Both the position numbers and the translations under genes were made by a program. Of a DNA stretch of 64,000 bases, positions 3,677-26,500 are shown in pieces. Numbering within the stretch: position 1 is the first letter of the stretch; the number at the start of each line of letters is the position of its first letter. The notes beneath the pieces were generated by a model. The model had not been told where the DNA came from, made no database searches, and was given only the letters and a program-made list of their open reading frames with translations. The DNA comes from Daphnia carinata. Taxonomy: Eukaryota. The stretch is from positions 930,001 through 994,000 of the forward strand of contig NC_081333.1 of NCBI RefSeq assembly GCF_022539665.2, written 5' to 3'.

Positions 3677-3915
3677 CGTCGCCTGGCTTTTCGCCCCGTC
3701 CGCCGCCTCGCCTGTAGCCGTCTTCGCCTCGCCCGTCGCCTCGCCCGTCTCCCCGTCTTCGCCTCGCCCGTCGCCTCGCCCGTCGCCTCGCCCGTCGCCC
3801 CGTCTTCGCCTCTCCCGTCGCCTCGCCCGTCGTCGTCGCCCTGTCATCGCCTCGTGGTCACGCCGTCTACGCCTCCCCTATCGCCCCTTCATCACCTCGT
3901 GGTCGCCTCGTCTTC
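3677..3915. repeat. GC-rich minisatellite, ~12-bp unit CGCCTCGCCCGT and variants
   Basis: Tandem TCGCCTCGCCCG/TCGCCCGTC units are visible. They explain the spurious ORFs 3635-3847 and 3650-3964. Confidence 0.9.
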
Positions 3916-3957
3916 GTGGTATGGTTGTGTTTTGTTTTATGTTGTATTATGTTTTGC

Positions 3958-4283
3958 AAACTAACACGTTGGCTGCCACCCACCCACTTTGATCCCCTTT
4001 TTTTTTGTAGCTTGACAGGGACGGGCCGCGCTGTTCTGCTCCATGGTCTATCTGCCATGGGGTGGAGCAGCGCCACTGCCCAAGATTGGCCGAATGGCCC
4101 CTAGGCAACGCACCACAGGGAATTCCCTTTTCCGATGCGGCTGATGAGACCTGGGGTGTGCGTTCCCAAAAAGGTCTCATCGCCGTGTCAGCCCGGCCTA
4201 CCCGGCCCCCTTGGTCGCTATCCCTAGGATAGCGACACTAGCGACAGTAGAAAATGGTGGCGTGGCAGCCAACGTGTTAGTTT
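3958..4283. mobile_element. MITE-like element (326 bp) with 22-bp perfect terminal inverted repeats
   Basis: AAACTAACACGTTGGCTGCCAC (3958-3979) and GTGGCAGCCAACGTGTTAGTTT (4262-4283). GC-rich non-coding interior with hairpins GATGAGACCT..AGGTCTCATC and GTCGCTATC..GATAGCGAC. No clear target-site duplication. Confidence 0.75.
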
Positions 4284-4424: not shown

Positions 4425-4490
4425 ACTGATATGGGGATCGAACCCTAGTATTCTAGCATGACAAACACATGCTTTACCATTATTCCAACC
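4425..4490 (-). pseudogene. Degenerate tRNA-like cassette
   Basis: The minus strand reads ..TAATGGTAAAGC (A-box/D-loop-like)..GGGTTCGATCCCC (B-box/T-loop). The stems are degenerate. Confidence 0.55.
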
Positions 4491-4583: not shown

Positions 4584-4653
4584 GGTAGTATGACATACCG
4601 GTAGCACGCTGGCCTATGGTGCAAGAATTCTGTGGTTCAAATCCCAGACGACT
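4584..4653 (+). pseudogene. Degenerate tRNA-like cassette
   Basis: GGTAGC D-loop-like segment, GGTTCAAATCCC T-loop/B-box and a partial acceptor stem GGTAGT/ACGACT. Confidence 0.5.
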
Positions 4654-4815
4654 TAAAATGGATTATCGAAGTAAGAATATTAAATGAAGAAAGAAATTAG
4701 AAGAATGCCAAGCAGAAAACACAAGACCAAGCAATATAAAAAAAAAGAAAGGGCAGAGTAAGAAAGCAGTTAAAAACATAAGTTTTGCTATTTTTTGTTA
4801 AAAAAAAATAAATTG

Positions 4816-5311
4816 TATTGACATTACTCTGCACATATAAATGATTTTGCAACTTTAAAAAGGCACAATAGCCCTTTCAAAAGTTGCCGTCAACCCAGGC
4901 AGGGGGAGACACTGCCTTGTTGACCCACCGGGGAGATTACCCGGTGATTGGCTAAGAGAAGCCGGAAGAAGAGCCGAAGATATGGAACATTTTTACAGGA
5001 GCGATTAACCTTTAGTTCGGATTTGTGGATAGCCACGTCGCCCTCCGTGAACACATCATCGGACTAAGCGGACACCCCACGTCCCCTTTCCGGCCAGAGC
5101 CCTCCAAACCTCGGTATATGTTATTTTTATATATACCGTACAGTAGGGGCATGACCCCCTACGGGCTTATTACGAGTCAAGGGGAAACGGGGCTACGGAA
5201 AGGAAGGGAGCCCAGATATGCACTTCAATTTTTTAAATATCAAATACCGTCTCGGGAATCCGAATGAATTATAGAAATATCATGTCATCCATCCAATCAT
5301 TACAATTTATT
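4816..5311 (-). repeat. Structured repeat module, copy 1 (left arm of a ~500-bp inverted repeat)
   Basis: Near-identical reverse complement of 6952-7447. Confidence 0.95.
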
Positions 5312-5399
5312 CAGTGTCATGCCCCAACCAAGAATTTTTTCAGATCCAATGTTACTATTAACCTACACTGAGAAAAGAAAAACAACACCATTAAGCATC

Positions 5400-6770
5400 T
5401 CAATTGTTGCTCATGTGACTTACATGACTCATAGATTCAACTTCTGGCAGAAGCTCGGGAAAGGCCATACAAATTGTAGATGAAAATCATTGTATAAGGC
5501 TCTTGAAGGATAAAATAACACCCCTAGAATGTTGCATTGTTGATAGTTGTGTTCCCAGTATGCTGAAAATCCTTTCCTATTGGATAAATTTTTTTTGTAG
5601 ATTAGACATGGTTGGCAAAAAGGAGAAGAAAAGCTTCATCATAAATTCAAAAATTTTTCAAGAAAATTCCTTTCATACCTAAAGAGTCCATGTATGATGT
5701 TCATCGCTGCAATGCCAGTGAAGTGAAACATCTTTAGGGCCATTTAAGTACCCAGCTTCACCAACACTCTGAGTGTAAAGGACAAGTTGTTCTTTAGCAA
5801 GAGAAGCAGAATTATTTGAGGCTTCTAGCTATAACAGAACTATAAAGGATTGCTGTTACACAGGATTCATTCACACAAGATGGTACTTCTCATTAGACAA
5901 TTTGCATACTCTATTACTTTACCTCATACCTTAATGGTAATGCACTTTCAGTGTTTTTCAACTGTAGGCTCACTCTTCCATCCTGTAACACTTCTAGACT
6001 TGACTTGATCCCCCACTAGAATTCTGTGAATGCAAAATAATAGCATTAAAAATACTGTTTCGATAGACAAAAAACCGAAAAGTACCTAATTCCTGTTTTA
6101 TGTTGAACTCATGCTATTTCTGGGTTTCCGTACCACACCCATTTTCAGCCCAAATACGGTCCCACAATTGTTCACTTCCTTTGCTGCCTGGACTTATTAC
6201 TAACAATTCTTTTAGTGCAGCACTAACAGAATTTAACTTTAACACACTGTCAGGTGGTAGACTGAATAACTAAGCAATAAATAATTGTTTGTTAAAATTC
6301 TATACTTATTTTGAATTCTTATTTGAAAAGTTTAGGTACCTGACTGTGTTCGCCTAATGCCAATTCATCCTCATGTTCAGTTAGGGATGAGTTTGGAAAA
6401 ACCTCCTTCACTGTTTGGAAACTGTTCCATTCCAATTTGTTCTTTTCCCCTAGCTGAGCTTGTAGACTCAAAATTTGAGCTACAAAACACAAATGAATAA
6501 AAGCAAATAAATAGAATCATTATGTATAAGCCCTTACCATCCTTAGCTTTGCTGTTATCTAATATTTTGTGTTGTTCCAATAATTGGGCCTGCAGCTTCA
6601 TAATTTGATCTAATAAACAATAATTAATAATTGAAAAGCAATATAATAATGTTTATACTTACCATCCTTTTGTTGTATTATCTTATCCATTTTTCAATTG
6701 TTCCTCCAGCCACGCGTTATTCTCTCCATCCACGCTACTGAACTAACTGCGAATGGCATCCAATGGACTG
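5400..6770 (-). pseudogene. Decayed transposon cargo gene with a Ulp1/C48-like cysteine protease relic
   Basis: The minus strand gives HFTGIAA (5725-5705) and then, after a frameshift, YMDSLG (5694-5677), resembling the Ulp1 H..Y(Y)DSL motifs. Many stops. GT donor remnants at ~6537 and ~6662. Confidence 0.4.
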
Positions 6771-6951
6771 AAATTGCCTACGCCAGTAATAACGAGTCTG
6801 AGCGGTAGATGGCTACGTGTCGGAAAAAAAGAAAAAAGTGTGATTTTTTTTTTTTTTTGGCGACATTTTTTTTTTTTTTTGTGTAAAAAAAAAATGTCGG
6901 AAAAAAAAAAATCGCACTTTTTTCTTTTTTTAATAATTCTTTTTTTTCTGT

Positions 6952-7447
6952 AATAAATTGTAATGATTGAATGGATGACATGACATTTCTATACTTCATT
7001 CGGATTCCCGAGACGGTATTTTATATTAAAAAAATTGAAGTGCATATCTGGGCTCCCTTCCTTTCCGTAGCCCCGTTTCCCCTTGACTCGTAATAAGCCC
7101 GTAGGGGGTCATGCCCCTACTGTACGGTATATATAAAAACAACATATACCGAGGTTTGGAGGGCTCTGGCCGGAAAGGGGACGTGGATGTCCGCTTAGTC
7201 CGATGATGTGTTCACGGAGGGCTCTGTGGTTACCCACAAATCCGAACTAAAGGTTAATCGCTCCTGTAAAAATGTTCCAAATCTTCAGCTCTTCTTCCGG
7301 CTTCTCTTAGCCAATCACCGGGTAATCTCCCCGGTGGGTCAACAAGGCAGTGTCTCCCCCTGCCTGGGTTGACGGCAACTTTTGAAAGGGCTATTGTGCC
7401 TTTTTAAAGTTGCAAAAATAATTGTAATGTGCAGAGAATTGTCAATA
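6952..7447 (+). repeat. Structured repeat module, copy 2 (right arm of the inverted repeat)
   Basis: Matches 4816-5311 (inverted) and 22337-22765 (direct). Contains a series of hairpins. Confidence 0.95.
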
Positions 7448-7546
7448 AATTTTTTTTTATAAAATATTTTTTGCAAAATTCGTTTCTTTCATTGTCTGTG
7501 TTAGCTGTGTTTACAATTACCAATTTTTTTTTTATTTATCTTGCTC

Positions 7547-7912
7547 AAAAAAAAATTTTAAGCCCGACTAAATAAGCCCGGCTAAGTATATAAGAAAAGT
7601 TGGGCTTAAAAATTTTTCTGCAAAACCTAGCACTCATCGGAATTGATTGAAAATCACAAAATGTACTAAAAATTGAATGCTGATTCCGGTAAAATTGCTA
7701 TTTTTTTCATTAAGTTAATCGTTTTTTAGATACACTGAATATTTGGCGCAATGCTAGCACGCCAGTACGCTACAGTGCTAGTGCGATGCAGCAGAAATGT
7801 TCGGTGAGTGTATGTGGAGAACTAATTAGAAATCTGACCGCTAGATGGTGATAGCAGTAGAACAGAAAAAAAAGCCGATACTTTTTTTTTGGGGGTAAAA
7901 CGGATTGCCATG
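7547..7912 (+). repeat. Element-end repeat block (AAGCCCGACT palindrome plus CTCF-like motif segment)
   Basis: 7547-7809 matches 24481-24710 inverted. 7800-7880 matches 24711-24790 direct. 7837-7912 matches 20987-21076 inverted. Confidence 0.85.
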
Positions 7913-9019
7913 CACTGATGGCGGAAGCACTTTAGAAGAATGGGTATTTCTAGAACGTTGCCAAATAGGAGTATAGATTTTGGGTGTACACGTTTCATAT
8001 GGAGTCAAGCATTCAACGCAGTCAACCTAACTGTTGAATGCTGAGTCTGTTATTCTTCCACTGCCTCAGCTTCTTGCTGACGACAGTCTTAGAACCATTC
8101 TGGTTCTATGAAGTTATATCGTTAAAATCCCGATTGTTATGTTTAAAAACATGTTCTGATTATGTAGTATTTATTATTATGCTTTTCTTCAGTTCAAGGG
8201 AAAAGCGACGAATTCTAAAGAAAAAAATCAAAATGCCGGAACCGTAATACAATGTCAGGAGTTAAAGTTTACGAAAAAGAAAAGTTTTTTATTGCTGTTT
8301 AATGTCAGGTAATTCTGCTTTAACCGTGAGGGCAGCAAGTATAATTTTTTCTTAGCATGGTTGAATCGTCTGTTTTAGAATAAGTCTAAAATAATTTTAC
8401 GTTGAGTTTGCATCACCGACGTTATCAACTTGCTTTTAGGAAGCAGTTGGTATCTTTCCTCTTTTGTAAATTTCGACGTATTCTCAGCCAACATTCCATT
8501 TCGTTAAAACGTATGTAAGAACATTTCATGACTAACTTCTCCGATTAGAATGATACCGCCACCTTATGCAAGTAGATGTTCTACTTCCGTATCCTTTTGT
8601 CATTCCCATATTGTTCTTAACATTTCATGAATCGGAAGAGGACCTTCATTTACGTGTGGCGAAGCTCCTGCTTGCACTAGTCTCATTTCCAGTCAGAAAT
8701 TGATTTATCGAGCATTGCAATGCGTTACAACAAAGACCGATGGACATTACCGCGCAACATTGGTTCTACGATTTTGAAGATGTTTATCAAGACTACTTCA
8801 AGTTTGAAAATTACCAAATTGTAGTATGAAAAACCCATTGGTTCGATTGACGAGCCTCGTCAATCTTTAGAAGACGAAAAAAAAATATTTCCTTTTAAAA
8901 TACCAGATGTAGAATGGATTCCTTGTATTCGGTGATGACTATGAATACGTTACTTGAATTTACGATCAGATGACGTGAAATTTGGGTATAGAATTCGCGG
9001 GCAGTGAAATTGGAATGTT

Positions 9020-20210: not shown

Positions 20211-21914
20211 AATCAACCAACATGTTGGCGGGACATCTCGTCACCCAGTCGGCTGATCAAAACAATTTTCAACAGATCTCAATTGCTGAAAAAAATTTCC
20301 AGCTTGAACAGGAAATCCACAACAGGGGAGTTTTCTCACATCACACATTCACAAACAGCTCGCCTAAGCACTCTTTGGTTCACGTTGTTTTTCAATTATT
20401 TTGAATTTTTTTTTTTTACAAAGTCTTATGACTACCAAAGACTGCCTTACCTTGTGTAGGACCGTTTTTCATTTACGAGAGGCACAAGTTTAAAGTCACA
20501 CCAGTTATTGAGTTTTGAATTTTTTCTGTTTTTACGTGGGTTATGGTTCGGTATTTTTTTTTTATAAAATACATTTTCGTAATTCTTTTTACTGGAGAAT
20601 ATGCGAAGTGTGGTGTGTAAACTGCATCGGGGGCTGTTAGCGTGGTCAGTAAGACGACAGCTGACTTCTGAAAACAGTTTGGAATCGAGTTCTGTTTTGG
20701 AAATGTAGAGGAGAGGAGTAAACTAGCTCTAAACAGCAGTTCGGCGCGTCCTTCTTATGTGGATGTTTATAAAAAGGAGAATAATTCGAAGAATTTTTGT
20801 TTGCTGAAATCCTTGTTGGCTAACCTGTAGTTCTACTAAGTTGGAGTAAGACAATCCCGGAATTATGCTCCGTTCATATTTCGAATAAAAGTTATGGAAA
20901 AAAAAACTCTTTTACCTCAAACTGAAAGAATTCGTAAATTAACTATAAAGCCTTGGGCTCGGAACTTATTGCCGAAGACCCGGGATGTATGGCAATCCGT
21001 TTTACCCCCCCCCCCCCAAAAAAAAAAAAATATCGGCCTTTTTTTGCTGTTTCACTGCTATCGCCACCTACCGGTCGGTAGATGGTGACAGCAACCGAAA
21101 CAAATGCCAGCAAAAAGCAAACAAATGCCAAAGGTGAGACATGCTGGAAAAGCTTGATACGAATGTGTAGGCGTAGTTTTGGAATTCAGAGGTGCTAGCC
21201 GGATGTTTGGAAAAACTTCAGTTAAATTTGGTTTCAATTCAATATGTTTTACTTATTATTTGTGTGATTACGCAAAGGATTGCGCCATCCAGGCAATGTG
21301 GATATTCTGCCATGTACATGATAAACCTAGGATTCTTCGCCAACATGCAAGATGTTACCCCCTGGTAATGCTTTTCCGCTGAGTTTGTTTAGTTTTCTAT
21401 TTTTAATCGTCAATGTCGTATTAGCAAACTACTGTTGACAGAAAAGCTGATACATTGCGACAATGGTTACAGCAAGTGGGATGAATAAATCAGCATAGGT
21501 CAGTTGCCGTGCCTTCCCAATTGCAACGAAGACGAATCATGGAGTCAAAAACAATAAAAGGTGGTACTATTTTAATTGTTTTAATTGATATATTGCCAAG
21601 TGCTGATGATATGTGTGTAGAACATGCTGGAATTCATGTCATCCTGGAGAGGACTAAAAAAAAAAGTAGCTGTATCCATGAAGCAGCTCATTAGTCATGT
21701 TCCAAACCATTGCCTGCATCAGCCAGCAATCTTTCAATGGCTAACAAGCATTTAATAGTTTTGAAAATCGCGGTTTGCACTCCCAGAGGCGACATTCCTA
21801 AATCCCACCTGTCAAAAAATTTATGCAACAATTTCTATTCTGAACTGACGCCTACCAAATTCTTTTTCCATAAAATGAGGTGATATGAGGTTATAAAGGA
21901 AATTGTCGTCAAGA

Positions 21915-22290
21915 CTGCCGAGACCAGGTACATTGTTTACCTTAACGTTTAGTGATCAAAACAACCAACTTTGTAACCTTTCTGTTTTTTATGGTGCATG
22001 GAACGTCCAATCGGAAAGCCCATGGAAAATCTCTGTGGCCAACACGAAGGGTTCTTCCAAACTTTCGTATTCAAGTTTTGGCTATGGTGATCATTTGCAA
22101 CTGCATGGCCTTTTAGAAGCTCCTGCCAGGAATCTACAGGAATATGGCAGATGATGAATTTATGTACCATGTAAGCTATATCAATAAGAATCTTTTATGC
22201 TTATCTATGTTTTATTTTCTTAATTTAGATTAATATCAATAGTGAACCTGCGAAGGTTTCTGGTTGGGATGTGATGACGAAAAGTTATAA
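21915..22290 (+). pseudogene. OTU-like cysteine protease relic
   Basis: LPRPG-(HCL in the adjacent frame)..FSDQ...GYGDHLQLHGLLE...RNLQEY resembles the OTU GxCLF..SDQ / WGDH..LQAL motifs. Frameshifted. Confidence 0.35.
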
Positions 22291-22336
22291 CAATTTGAAG
22301 TACGGAATTGGATTTCCCTCCATGAGTCGCCTGTGT

Positions 22337-22765
22337 ATTCCCGCGTATTACGGTATTAATTATTTAAAAATTGAAGTGCATATCTGGGCTCCCTTCTTTT
22401 CTGTAGCCCCGTTTCCCTTTGATTTGTAATAAGCCCGTAGGGGGTCATGCCCCTACTGTGATCAGCAGCAAAGGTTGTGAGTGCGCTGTCTGGAAAGGGG
22501 ACGTGGGGGTCCTCATGGTCCGATGATATCATTGGAGGGCTATGGGGCTACCCAAAAATCCGAATTAACAGTTAATCGCTCACGTAAAAGCTTGTCCGAA
22601 ACCTTCGCTCTTCTTCCGGCTTCTCTTAGCCACGCACCGGGTAATCTCCCCGGTGAGTCAACTGAGGTAGTGTCTCCCCCTACCTTGGTTGACAGCAACT
22701 TTGAAATCGGCTATTTTGCCATTTCAAAGTTGCACGTCTTTAAATTGTGCAGAGTATTGTCAATA
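22337..22765 (+). repeat. Structured repeat module, copy 3 (diverged)
   Basis: Direct homologue of ~7004-7447. Stems are preserved by compensatory changes. Confidence 0.92.
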
Positions 22766-23089
22766 CAAATTCCTTAAAAAAAAATTACAGATCTTGTCTT
22801 TGTTACTGTCATGGTGTTGCTCTGCACTTTTCACTATTGTGAACATCTTTTTATTTATGTCGTAATGTCATTCTATTGAAGTTCACGTTGTATTTTCAAT
22901 TTTTGCTGCTCCCAGTCATGAGCGAATACTTCGTTATTATACGACTTCATTGTTTATGGAACGATGCACTTTAATCTCCCTTCATGGAGATTCTATAACT
23001 TTTAGTGCATTAATGATACTGAATTGTATACATGCATTGTATATTAAATTTGCCATTATGAATTATATTTATTTATTCAATCTTATTCT

Positions 23090-23159
23090 GACTCTTTAGG
23101 GGATTGAACCCTTGATTTCTTGCGTGCGACGCCGATGCTCAACCATAGAGCCATGAGTC
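23090..23159 (-). pseudogene. tRNA-like cloverleaf (degenerate anticodon arm)
   Basis: GACTC..GAGTC acceptor stem, GCTC-TATGGTT-GAGC D-arm, GGG-TTCAATC-CCC T-arm. Confidence 0.65.
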
Positions 23160-23562: not shown

Positions 23563-26500
23563 TATTACACGATTTCCAATTGGTTAACAAATAGTTTCGT
23601 AAGCGTCAAAAAATATCGTAGACAATTTCATCAGGATCTTTTCATTTTATCATACAATATCTTTGTGGTAAAGCACCGACAGCCAAGGTCATGGTTTCAA
23701 TATACTAACTGAGATGGAAAGTCAATGTTTTATGCAGAGTGTGCATCATTGAAAAACAATTTTCCTCTTCATACACTAGAAGCATTAATTAAGGTTCAAC
23801 TACTATTATATATTTTTTGACAATTGTTACAAATTTCCTTCTAGTGATAAAGGTATGCTGTTAGCGATGTTCAGTCAAGAATGGCACAAGAATATATTTT
23901 GCTAACTGTTTGCCATACAGTTGCTAATACCTCATTATGCATCCTACTCACACTCTTCGTTGGTTCTCACAAATCTCACATTTGGGTTGTTTTACTCACA
24001 TTCCTTAGAAATAACTCTTTTTAATAACACATATGATTGGTACTTATGGAGTGTTACAATACTATTTACTTGTCATGCATTCTTCCTTTTGAAGGCTTTC
24101 GGGATCAATTACGGCTGCACAACTTCTGAATTACAATAGGTTGGATTTCATATATGTTGACAACCTCAATACTGAAATTTATCCTATAGATCACAGATGT
24201 ATTAATCAGCTAAAAAGGATATAAATTTTTTAATCTCGTGCTATAAAATATTGTGATATAAATACGTTCCTCGTCTAAACTTACATAATACATAAGATAG
24301 TAGAAAGATTGGGTAAAACTTATGTTCTCCTGATAGTCAGTTTCACAATACTGTTCTTTAACCATCAAATGTTTGTTTTTTATATCTTTGAGCATAACAT
24401 AAGGGGGTTCTCTAAAAGTCCGCAACGAACGCCACGAGTAATGCTACCCATATCTGCATTGTATTATGGCAATCCGTTTTGCTCACCGAATATGTCTGCC
24501 GCAGCGCGCTAGCATTGCGTCAAATACTCGTTGTATTTCAAAAACGATTAACTTCATAACAAAAATAGAAATTTTCCCGGAATCAGCATTCAATTTTGAG
24601 TATATCCTGAGATATTCAACCAATTCCGGTGAGTGTCAGATTTTTCAGAAAAAATTTTTAAGCCCGACCGAGAAAAGTCGGGTTTATTTAGTCGGGCTTA
24701 AATTTTTTTTTTCGGTCAGTGTATGTAGAGAATTAACTAGAAATGTGACCGGTAGATGGCGATAGCAGTAAAACAGAAAAAAGGCCAATAATTTATTTCA
24801 ACAGAACTACAATATTTAAATGCTCAAAATGGTAAATCCTTTAATTGCACCAGTTAGCGTGAGCAGGTCATCCCATTTTAATTGATCAACAACTTCGGAC
24901 AACGTAATGCGATTCCAGAGTGTGAAAAATGTTTCTCCCCATCCATATGACAGTGGGGCAGTATAAGCAAAGAAGAATGGGATTAACTATTCGCATCATC
25001 ATTGCAAAAAAATTAGTACATTATTTAGTATTTTAAATGAGTTATAACCCTTGGATCTAGCAAGTTCATTCCCATTATCTCAAGCATTTGGTAGTGATTA
25101 GTTTTTCAACGAAAAAGTTTAAATCTGAAATCGCCATAATTAGATTTTGGACCTTAAAAATGCACGTCGACCTCTAATAGCCATTGCCCAACCAATATTT
25201 TAAAAACTTGCAGATGCTCTCAAACAAGATCGGCATTAATGTCCATTGCTAATTTTTATTATGACAATAAATTTTTTTTTAGCATCATCTTATCAACCAG
25301 AATTTCAGCTAATAGCTCATAGATTTTATCTTTACTTCTCCATCGCCATACAAAAACGTTGAAAGCATATTCGCATATAGCGATACGGTGTGACATTTAG
25401 TAATACTTATAGTTTTTGCGCTGACAACACGTAGAATACATTTCTGCAGCCGTGTAAATGAAACGAGAGTGTCACACAGTCCGAGCAGCGAAAGATTGAA
25501 ATGCCCAGTAATTAATTTTGTAGATAAAAGAGACAAGAGTAAAATATATAGTCTGCCGAAGAGGGCAGTTACGCGTTAAAGAGACCTGAAACTTGCTGAT
25601 AAAGATCGTGTGTAACCTGTTCAAACACGGTACATGGCGTTTTTTCTTTGTTTTTTTTTGCTGTACCTTGTTTGAAGTTCCCTCCTTTTTTAGAGGTTTT
25701 CCCACGGATCTTTCCCCCACATATATCCTTCTTTACATACTTTCCGATGAGACGCCTCGCTCGCTAATATTCACACACAGAGACACACAGAAAACCTTGT
25801 CGACAAGTTACGACGAAAATGTTTTGTGTCCATGGGAAAAAAAAAAAAATAAAATAAAACAACATTTTAAAAACTGATGCTCGACGTGTTTGCCTACGGT
25901 TGTCGTATCCGCAGGTAGCCGTGTTTTTGTTTTCAATCAACAGTTTGAATAGTTCAGTTTCCATTTCAAATAATTATTGGTTTTCACGCTTTGTTTGTTC
26001 TAGAAATAAATAATTCATTTCAGTTTACAATTGATAGACCAAAGGACGAGTTAAAAAAAAAAAAAAAAAGATGGCCGTTGCCAAAAGTGGAGAATGTTTC
26101 TCTAAGTGAGCTTTTTACATACGAAAATGCTTAGGTAATAAAGATTGTAGAATGTTTGGCTTAAGCTGAGAATGCCAATTTGTTTGCCGGATGTGATATA
26201 ATACGTTGCTGACCCTCAGTGCCCCACGGCCTCCTTTGAAGTGGTGTGTTTTTGTCCAGCTGAATTGATCCAACAACAGAGTGGCTCACTAATGTTACTC
26301 AGCCCTCTACTCTTTTTTTTTTTTTTTTTAACACTGGCCCAAGGTCTTGGTTCATTCCCAGCTTCTTTCCGTATGTTATTTTCTTTTCCCACCAGCAATC
26401 TGAGAAATATACATAACACCGCAAGGACAGATCTGAGAAACGAAAACTTCTCAGCGGCGGAATTCACACACTTGGCCTGGAATTTCTTCATGTCGCTATA

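Follow-up and report, generated by a model that had tools for sequence, protein, structure and literature searches.

A conserved, probably RNA-level structural module of an apparently undescribed Daphnia family

The locus and the module copies

The window, a 64,000-nucleotide stretch of a Daphnia carinata contig analysed as a whole, is animal DNA with genes that include Hsp70, Abi, a bZIP gene, Nup214 and a myotubularin. It contains three copies of a module, here numbered by position, copy 1 on the reverse strand and copies 2 and 3 on the forward strand (Table 1). In copy 2, a knotted 5′ domain (7031 to ~7270) is followed by 3′ hairpins and by a conserved end, GTGCAGAG.ATTGTCAATA. The 3′ end of the module has AATAAA or AATACA and then a T-rich tail.

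Table 1 Features of the module copies and of the units around them
Feature	Position	Strand	Observation
Module copy 1, core	4815-5232	-	96% identical to copy 2 (alignment)
Module copy 2, core	7031-7447	+	BLAST, alignment, covariance model, folding
Module copy 3, core	22367-22765	+	84% identical to copy 1
Leader	6952-7030	+	common to copies 1 and 2 only (close match, 94%)
Module head	7031-7085	+	highest conservation in the module; 30 nt at its start invariant in 4/4 aligned copies
Predicted helix GGGCT/AGCCC	7050-7054 / 7096-7100	+	invariant
Predicted long-range helix	7066-7073 / 7219-7226	+	8 pairs; 1 two-sided and 3 one-sided changes
Predicted long-range helix TCCCCTT/AAGGGGA	7078-7084 / 7175-7181	+	
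Hairpin GTAGGGG/CCCCTAC, conserved GTCAYG loop	7101-7120	+	1 two-sided change; 2 broken pairs in L001
Predicted helix	7156-7161 / 7261-7266	+	2 two-sided changes; crosses both long-range helices
3′ hairpins, n = 4	7299-7413	+	2 two-sided changes (copies 1/2 vs 3); other hairpins in L001
Exon-intron-exon stretch upstream of copy 1	5257-5450	-	homologous to 22144-22338(+), 64%; GT...AG intron at matching place
Cargo of copy 1: decayed RPC1 exon and start of next intron	5642-5770	-	RPC1, RNA polymerase III largest subunit
Cargo of copy-1 unit, further upstream: small multi-exon gene	5964-6690	-	coiled-coil-like start; premature stop
Cargo upstream of copy 3: decayed RPC1 piece	21685-21937	+	human residues ~788-872
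A/T-rich palindrome	6824-6931	.	head-to-head junction of copy-1 unit and copy 2
11-bp direct repeat TTAGAAGAATG, left	4697-4707	+	possible target-site duplication
11-bp direct repeat TTAGAAGAATG, right	7932-7942	+	encloses 4708-7931
5′ segment of copy-3 unit	21016-21085	+	61 nt, 70% like 6860-6800(-); ends in short palindrome

The count of three, made in an earlier note on this DNA, was borne out by three methods. By BLAST within the window, 6952-7458(+) matches 5311-4804(-) at 95% identity and 7013-7468 matches 22350-22786(+) at 78%. A 22-mer of the module has three exact matches in the window (0.01 expected), and a covariance model of the 5′ domain recovers only copies 1-3 there, at 259-267 bits, with the next hit at 13 bits. 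The same note had placed the block at 6952..7447; the module is present in it, but the conserved core begins at ~7031 instead of 6952. At 7127-7152, an additional AT-rich hairpin is present in copies 1 and 2, whereas the segment is shorter in copy 3 and in the fourth copy described below, and both types are present among contigs of public sequencing runs. The module was judged by eye not to be coding, as a stop occurs at a shared site in the window copies and silent and non-silent changes are mixed.

The exact-pattern scan of metagenomes gave one match, a fourth copy (L001) on a metagenome contig, in which the 5′ domain is kept and the 3′ hairpins are of another set; the exact module patterns had no match in viral contigs or in prokaryote genomes. 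Downstream of the L001 module, an exon-like stretch at 150-560 lies in tandem duplicate, without a Pfam match.

Module variants were also found in contigs of six public runs out of the 24 listed, which contain only 14-16% of the query words. These data are contigs, only X17 and X18 being recorded as RNA, and flanks left uncovered in them prove nothing. At the copy-2 region, the module is covered in all four runs and 6700-7005 in none, while the few low-depth pieces beyond 7447 come from X17 only. At L001, cover in four of four runs is confined to the module head plus a single importin exon. In many run contigs the match ends after the first ~55 nt of the module and the sequence then diverges. 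The upstream flanks of these contigs are many and varied, so several subtypes of the family exist in those organisms. Some contigs extend up to ~1.3 kb beyond the matched part. These contigs attest to the presence of the module in other organisms.

Conservation was compared between copies 1 and 3, which are homologous beyond the module. The core is identical at 333 of 396 positions (84%), and the homologous flank at 121 of 188 (64%; Fisher p=2e-7), with core identity between copies reaching 95% in 40-nt windows. The flank alignment, which spans an exon, an intron and an exon, scores 147, whereas shuffled sequences average 45 and reach at most 80; searches with this stretch just upstream of the module, two of its three frames being used singly, found no identity for it. 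The claim that the module outlasts the relics beside it therefore holds at this contrast. The core was thus kept, by selection or, less likely, by conversion, while the flank drifted.

Predicted fold and base-pair changes

The 5′ domain was modeled by hand as 39 pairs on four sequences, copies 1-3 and L001. In this model 96% of cells are paired and 5 of the 39 pairs are changed on both sides; none of 500 shuffles reaches either value and slid controls are 44-56% paired, controls that are lenient because the model was drawn from the same sequences, two of them nearly identical. The two-sided changes occur in four helices of the domain. The best-supported helices are 7066-7073/7219-7226 and 7156-7161/7261-7266; the helix at 7050-7054/7096-7100, being invariant, gives no covariation evidence. 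Because these three and the helix at 7078-7084/7175-7181 cross, the model predicts pseudoknots, of which some may be alternative folds. Not all of the long-range pairs proposed earlier were retained, since TTCGGATT/AATCCGAA is not conserved and its 5′ arm is missing from copy 3 and L001.

RNAalifold yields a partly different, nested fold with 5 of 51 pairs compensated, and the GC-rich pyrimidine and purine runs of the module permit many alternative helices. Compared with shuffles, the module folds more stably on both strands (z of -2.3 to -5.9). Of 63 run variants, 40 are listed, and 13 of these 40 fall on paired positions, which make up 36% of all positions, so that stems are not depleted of variants; 10 of the 13 preserve the pair.

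The hairpins named earlier are present at 7101-7120, 7316-7336, 7338-7373 and 7375-7413. Among the 3′ hairpins, 2 of 39 pairs are compensated, a value reached by 47 of 500 shuffles, as expected because there are only two independent sequences. The change of AGGCAG/CTGCCT to AGGTAG/CTACCT is truly two-sided. In the last stem, one two-sided change keeps the pairing as had been claimed, but the other change is one-sided. The TCTCCCC motif, reported as lying in two loops, is wholly loop in one hairpin but half stem in the other.

Could the hairpins be chance products of a young or converted repeat with no selected structure? Few sequences, many alternative helices and stems undepleted of variants are what such a repeat would give, but it would leave the conservation contrast (p=2e-7) unaccounted for, as well as the two-sided changes, in four helices of the 5′ domain and two in the 3′ hairpins. 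The module also occurs in other organisms while its flanks are absent from the contigs, an absence of cover that by itself proves nothing. Overall, we consider this explanation very improbable, and take the module as a real, selected and probably RNA-level structure.

The earlier note held that G-U pairs favour the orientation of copies 2 and 3. The preference is modest: by RNA folding energy the plus strand is more stable in three of the four copies, but its z-score is better in only two, and the strong ssDNA fold of copy 3 is equal on both strands. One-sided run variants, with seven C>T opposite G versus two G>A opposite C, lean to the plus strand. We infer that the module acts as RNA.

Cargo and unit layout

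Wherever a module copy has a long upstream flank, it trails decayed pieces of host genes that run in its own sense (RPC1 in two cases, importin-alpha in one), and these relics are broken and set among introns. The RPC1 relics of copies 1 and 3 have E values of 3.9e-5, 0.002 and 0.009, and the importin-alpha relic upstream of the L001 module E ~2e-7. For the copy-1 RPC1 exon, the single match among 1.84 billion representatives is an Rpb1_5 protein and the best structure-bank match is RPC1. Pfam has no match in read-through frames of the flanks save a weak Rpb1_5 (E 0.038), and word-based protein searches with the RPC1 relic gave none. Identities as KDZ, tyrosine recombinase and Fanzor, suggested by eye, were displaced by the RPC1 and importin matches. 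Decayed RPC1 fragments with the same intron start are found in Logan contigs P0001-P0006, and the RPC1 relics may be part of a wider multi-copy family.

The small gene further upstream in the copy-1 unit has a cargo exon 79-100% identical to Daphnia carinata proteins. Its relatives, taken from 16 of 21 candidates, are 15 D. carinata clusters with 96 sequences and one D. magna protein. Among the members listed, at least 58 D. carinata gene ids lie on 10 chromosome-sized contigs (7.9-14.4 Mb). The 51 D. carinata proteins compared have a median identity of 88% with early stops scattered, and two of them, like the window copy, read through one and the same intron. The cargo retains GT...AG introns, one of which is common to copies 1 and 3. 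As judged by its members, the small-gene family has the pattern of a young dispersed repeat that keeps its introns. Captured gene pieces and this dispersed cargo family lend support to the idea, already raised, that the module belongs to a mobile unit. Near-identical copies of 5964-6690(-) make up dozens of ‘uncharacterized’ D. carinata gene models, which may be repeat cargo, not true genes.

The copy-1 unit starts at the palindrome at 6824-6931 and continues through the cargo into the module. Copy 2 begins at this palindrome too, as a short version in inverted orientation that has no reading frame, and copies 1 and 2 are inverted around 1.64 kb of cargo. In copy 1, the segment common with copy 2 is bounded by a 15-bp inverted repeat (14/15; 4807-4821 / 5297-5311), where copy 2 begins and which may have guided a template switch. 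The 11-bp direct repeat around the pair has a frequency of one in 350 background windows and was found post hoc after four window comparisons; further 11-12-bp repeats occur near it and a separate repeat at 7547-7914 lies inside its right end. Copy 3 lacks both an inverted partner and a clear duplication, and its short palindrome is at 21064-21085. The CCATCTA(C/G)CG motif of the copy-3 5′ segment also occurs near host gene starts; the shared 5′ segment may therefore be a promoter.

The module of copies 1 and 3 comes after a last exon with its stop codon, and together with AATAAA/AATACA and the T-rich tail this placement would suit a 3′-UTR element that controls stability, localisation or translation in a lineage-specific gene family and is carried by duplication. 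However, the upstream frames are decayed and dissimilar (RPC1, importin-alpha and the coiled-coil gene) and copy 2 has none, so there is no common protein to be under control. We regard such an element as quite improbable.

Helitrons and Pack-MULEs typically carry captured pieces with introns, and the module could be a subterminal structure, acting as ssDNA or RNA, of a gene-capturing DNA transposon of either kind, Helitron-like with rolling-circle movement or Pack-MULE-like with copies 1 and 2 as its long inverted repeats. Like the unit described here, both are dispersed and combine decayed exons and introns of host genes in a mosaic. The inversion of copies 1 and 2 around cargo, the possible 11-bp duplication and the ssDNA fold of copy 3 agree with this, and the Atlas search with the small-gene protein, in which all scores are below 0.9, has a weak lead to GCR1_C (0.77) that is a lead only. 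In contrast, similarity between copies 1 and 2 is lowest at their outer ends, with tails ~70% alike against cores 96% alike by alignment, the reverse of what terminal inverted repeats (TIRs) would give. A Pack-MULE was rejected on these tails and on the unpaired copy 3. No Helitron CTRR end was found by eye within ~80 nt of the module, true unit ends being possibly elsewhere, and the seven-to-two excess of G-U-forming changes leans to a fold of one strand. A DNA transposon is thus unlikely.

Other repeats and tRNA-like sequences lie nearby. Decayed tRNA-like sequences at 4434-4444(-), 4634-4644(+) and 23089-23159(-) are located 170-400 nt past the 3′ ends of copies 1 and 3. Two of them face the module, and they hold three of the six B-box matches in the window, six being no more than chance would give; the only Rfam tRNA hit is sub-threshold (E 0.099). 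They could hint at insertion near tRNA genes. The separate, MITE-like repeat of ~350 bp (7547-7914 / 24466-24798) is 81-85% alike between its copies, has ATGGCAATCCG ends and is inverted inside at a palindrome; the 5′ segment of the copy-3 unit is similar to the end of this repeat. An element of ~326 bp, read by eye at 3958-4283, has perfect inverted ends of 22 bp and GC-rich inner hairpins; it is preceded by a degenerate CGCC-rich tandem repeat (~3690-3920).

Relation to known RNAs and mobile elements

Copies 1-3 and L001 have no module match above noise in Rfam. The ribozyme guess of the earlier note did not hold for the known classes examined. The hammerhead core CTGANGA...GAAA is absent from both strands of the four copies, and rough descriptors detected no twister or pistol motif in them, nor is there an Rfam match for either. 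Similar descriptors for HDV-like ribozymes gave one loose match in copy 2 and one in copy 3, whose partners differ, and none in copy 1 or L001. Its guesses of a TnpB/Fanzor guide or scaffold RNA and of a Rep/DDE origin are unsupported as well, because the coding relics derive from the host genes for RPC1 and importin-alpha and not from transposases or nucleases; a Fanzor/TnpB omega-RNA was rejected, as the relics upstream, the unnamed small gene included, show no RuvC nuclease ORF. No reverse transcriptase or GIY-YIG relic was found in the flanks examined beside any copy. A tRNA-derived SINE is not indicated, with no genes by ARAGORN and no B-box inside the module.

A multi-copy host noncoding RNA, processed from polymerase II transcripts in the manner of crustacean RNase P RNA and spread passively by segmental duplication with the pseudogene pieces as bystanders, was also weighed. 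In D. pulex, ten RNase P RNA genes lie in different recipient genes, according to PMC4287351; this is likewise a large structured RNA in varied gene contexts, but the module copies have no RNase P/MRP match in Rfam and no CR-I motif. Invariant blocks in loops as well as stems of the module would fit a host RNA, as would the presence of both subtypes, copy-3-like and copy-1/2-like, among run contigs from other organisms (loose ends at 1036 and 1067). Semi-conserved TCYCA...GGTATT words, seen by eye upstream of many module heads, would fit too; pairing of the TCYCA word with the head has folding z of -1.2 to +1.3, which does not support a hairpin. The Daphnia telomere repeat is TTAGG, and the copies contain it as a telomerase template only in single 6-mers, none of them common among copies. 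In addition, the 3′ half of the module is swapped in L001, and the copies adjoin decayed, rearranged cargo and not intact genes. A host RNA of this kind is in our view improbable.

The layout fits Penelope elements. These are reported to disperse intron-containing host genes via terminal repeats, with head-to-head inverted copies, junction palindromes and 8-10-bp duplications (PMC3846280). We therefore favour, tentatively and short of an even chance, that the module is a folded RNA signal at the 3′ terminus of a non-autonomous mobile unit of Daphnia that is copied in trans, most likely by a Penelope-type reverse transcriptase. This reading is weakened by the failure to find an enzyme in the flanks examined, by the ~70% likeness of the tails of copies 1 and 2, and by copy 3 standing without a partner. 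Shared with Penelope elements, as described in that paper, are the terminal module beside intron-bearing host sequence, the head-to-head inverted copy, the junction palindrome, a possible duplication of ~11 bp and the dispersed gene family. In contrast, the present unit has no hammerhead, a ~420-nt knotted fold in place of a ~200-bp repeat, a single same-sense module copy per unit and no autonomous partner that could be found.

Some Penelope-like clades, Naiad/Chlamys among them, lack canonical hammerheads, and Naiad/Chlamys also have inverted 5′-truncated copies and non-autonomous derivatives, as given in PMC8557442. Unlike in them, no reverse transcriptase, endonuclease or (TA)n target was found in the unit described here, and the passages of PMC8557442 compared describe no conserved large RNA fold for them; their supplement contains no module motif and no Daphnia match. 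Animal non-LTR retrozymes are similarly short, structured and non-autonomous with a proposed pseudo-LTR derivation, but their defining features, a hammerhead and tandem arrays, are both missing from the module (bioRxiv 10.64898/2026.07.22.740005).

If the module is such a terminal signal, dispersal could proceed as follows. The promoter-like segment would start a read-through transcript over cargo and module. The folded module would recruit an enzyme encoded elsewhere, which would copy the module plus upstream gene pieces, and the inverted copy would result from self-priming or a template jump. The cargo would then decay neutrally, whereas each round of copying would select an intact module. 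By analogy, the module would work like a Penelope pseudo-LTR, with membership putative, and we infer that it drives cargo dispersal with a Penelope-like partner enzyme. A bolder version, to which we give a low probability, is a Penelope-like system in which a new, large, multiply pseudoknotted and possibly catalytic RNA replaces the hammerhead, makes upstream transcripts into mobile intron-keeping units and yields lineage-specific families; it may prefer sites downstream of tRNA genes.

Of the functional RNA or ssDNA structure proposed in the earlier note for an unrecognised mobile family, the selected, structured and dispersed module without an Rfam match stands, but the parent element was not found. 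The literature search, with most subscription papers outside it, gave nothing relevant for module motifs, Daphnia structured RNA or 7SK. The family is apparently undescribed and may stand in Dfam or Repbase as an unclassified repeat.

Large conserved RNA folds in animals are rare outside known families. Daphnia genomes have many lineage-specific duplicate genes. If true, the dispersal of intron-containing gene pieces by a portable RNA signal would be a concrete and testable mechanism for these duplicates. Extensive duplication in Daphnia is mentioned in PMC4287351. If the proposed signal is real, dozens of ‘uncharacterized’ gene models of D. carinata would be the cargo of a mobile unit.
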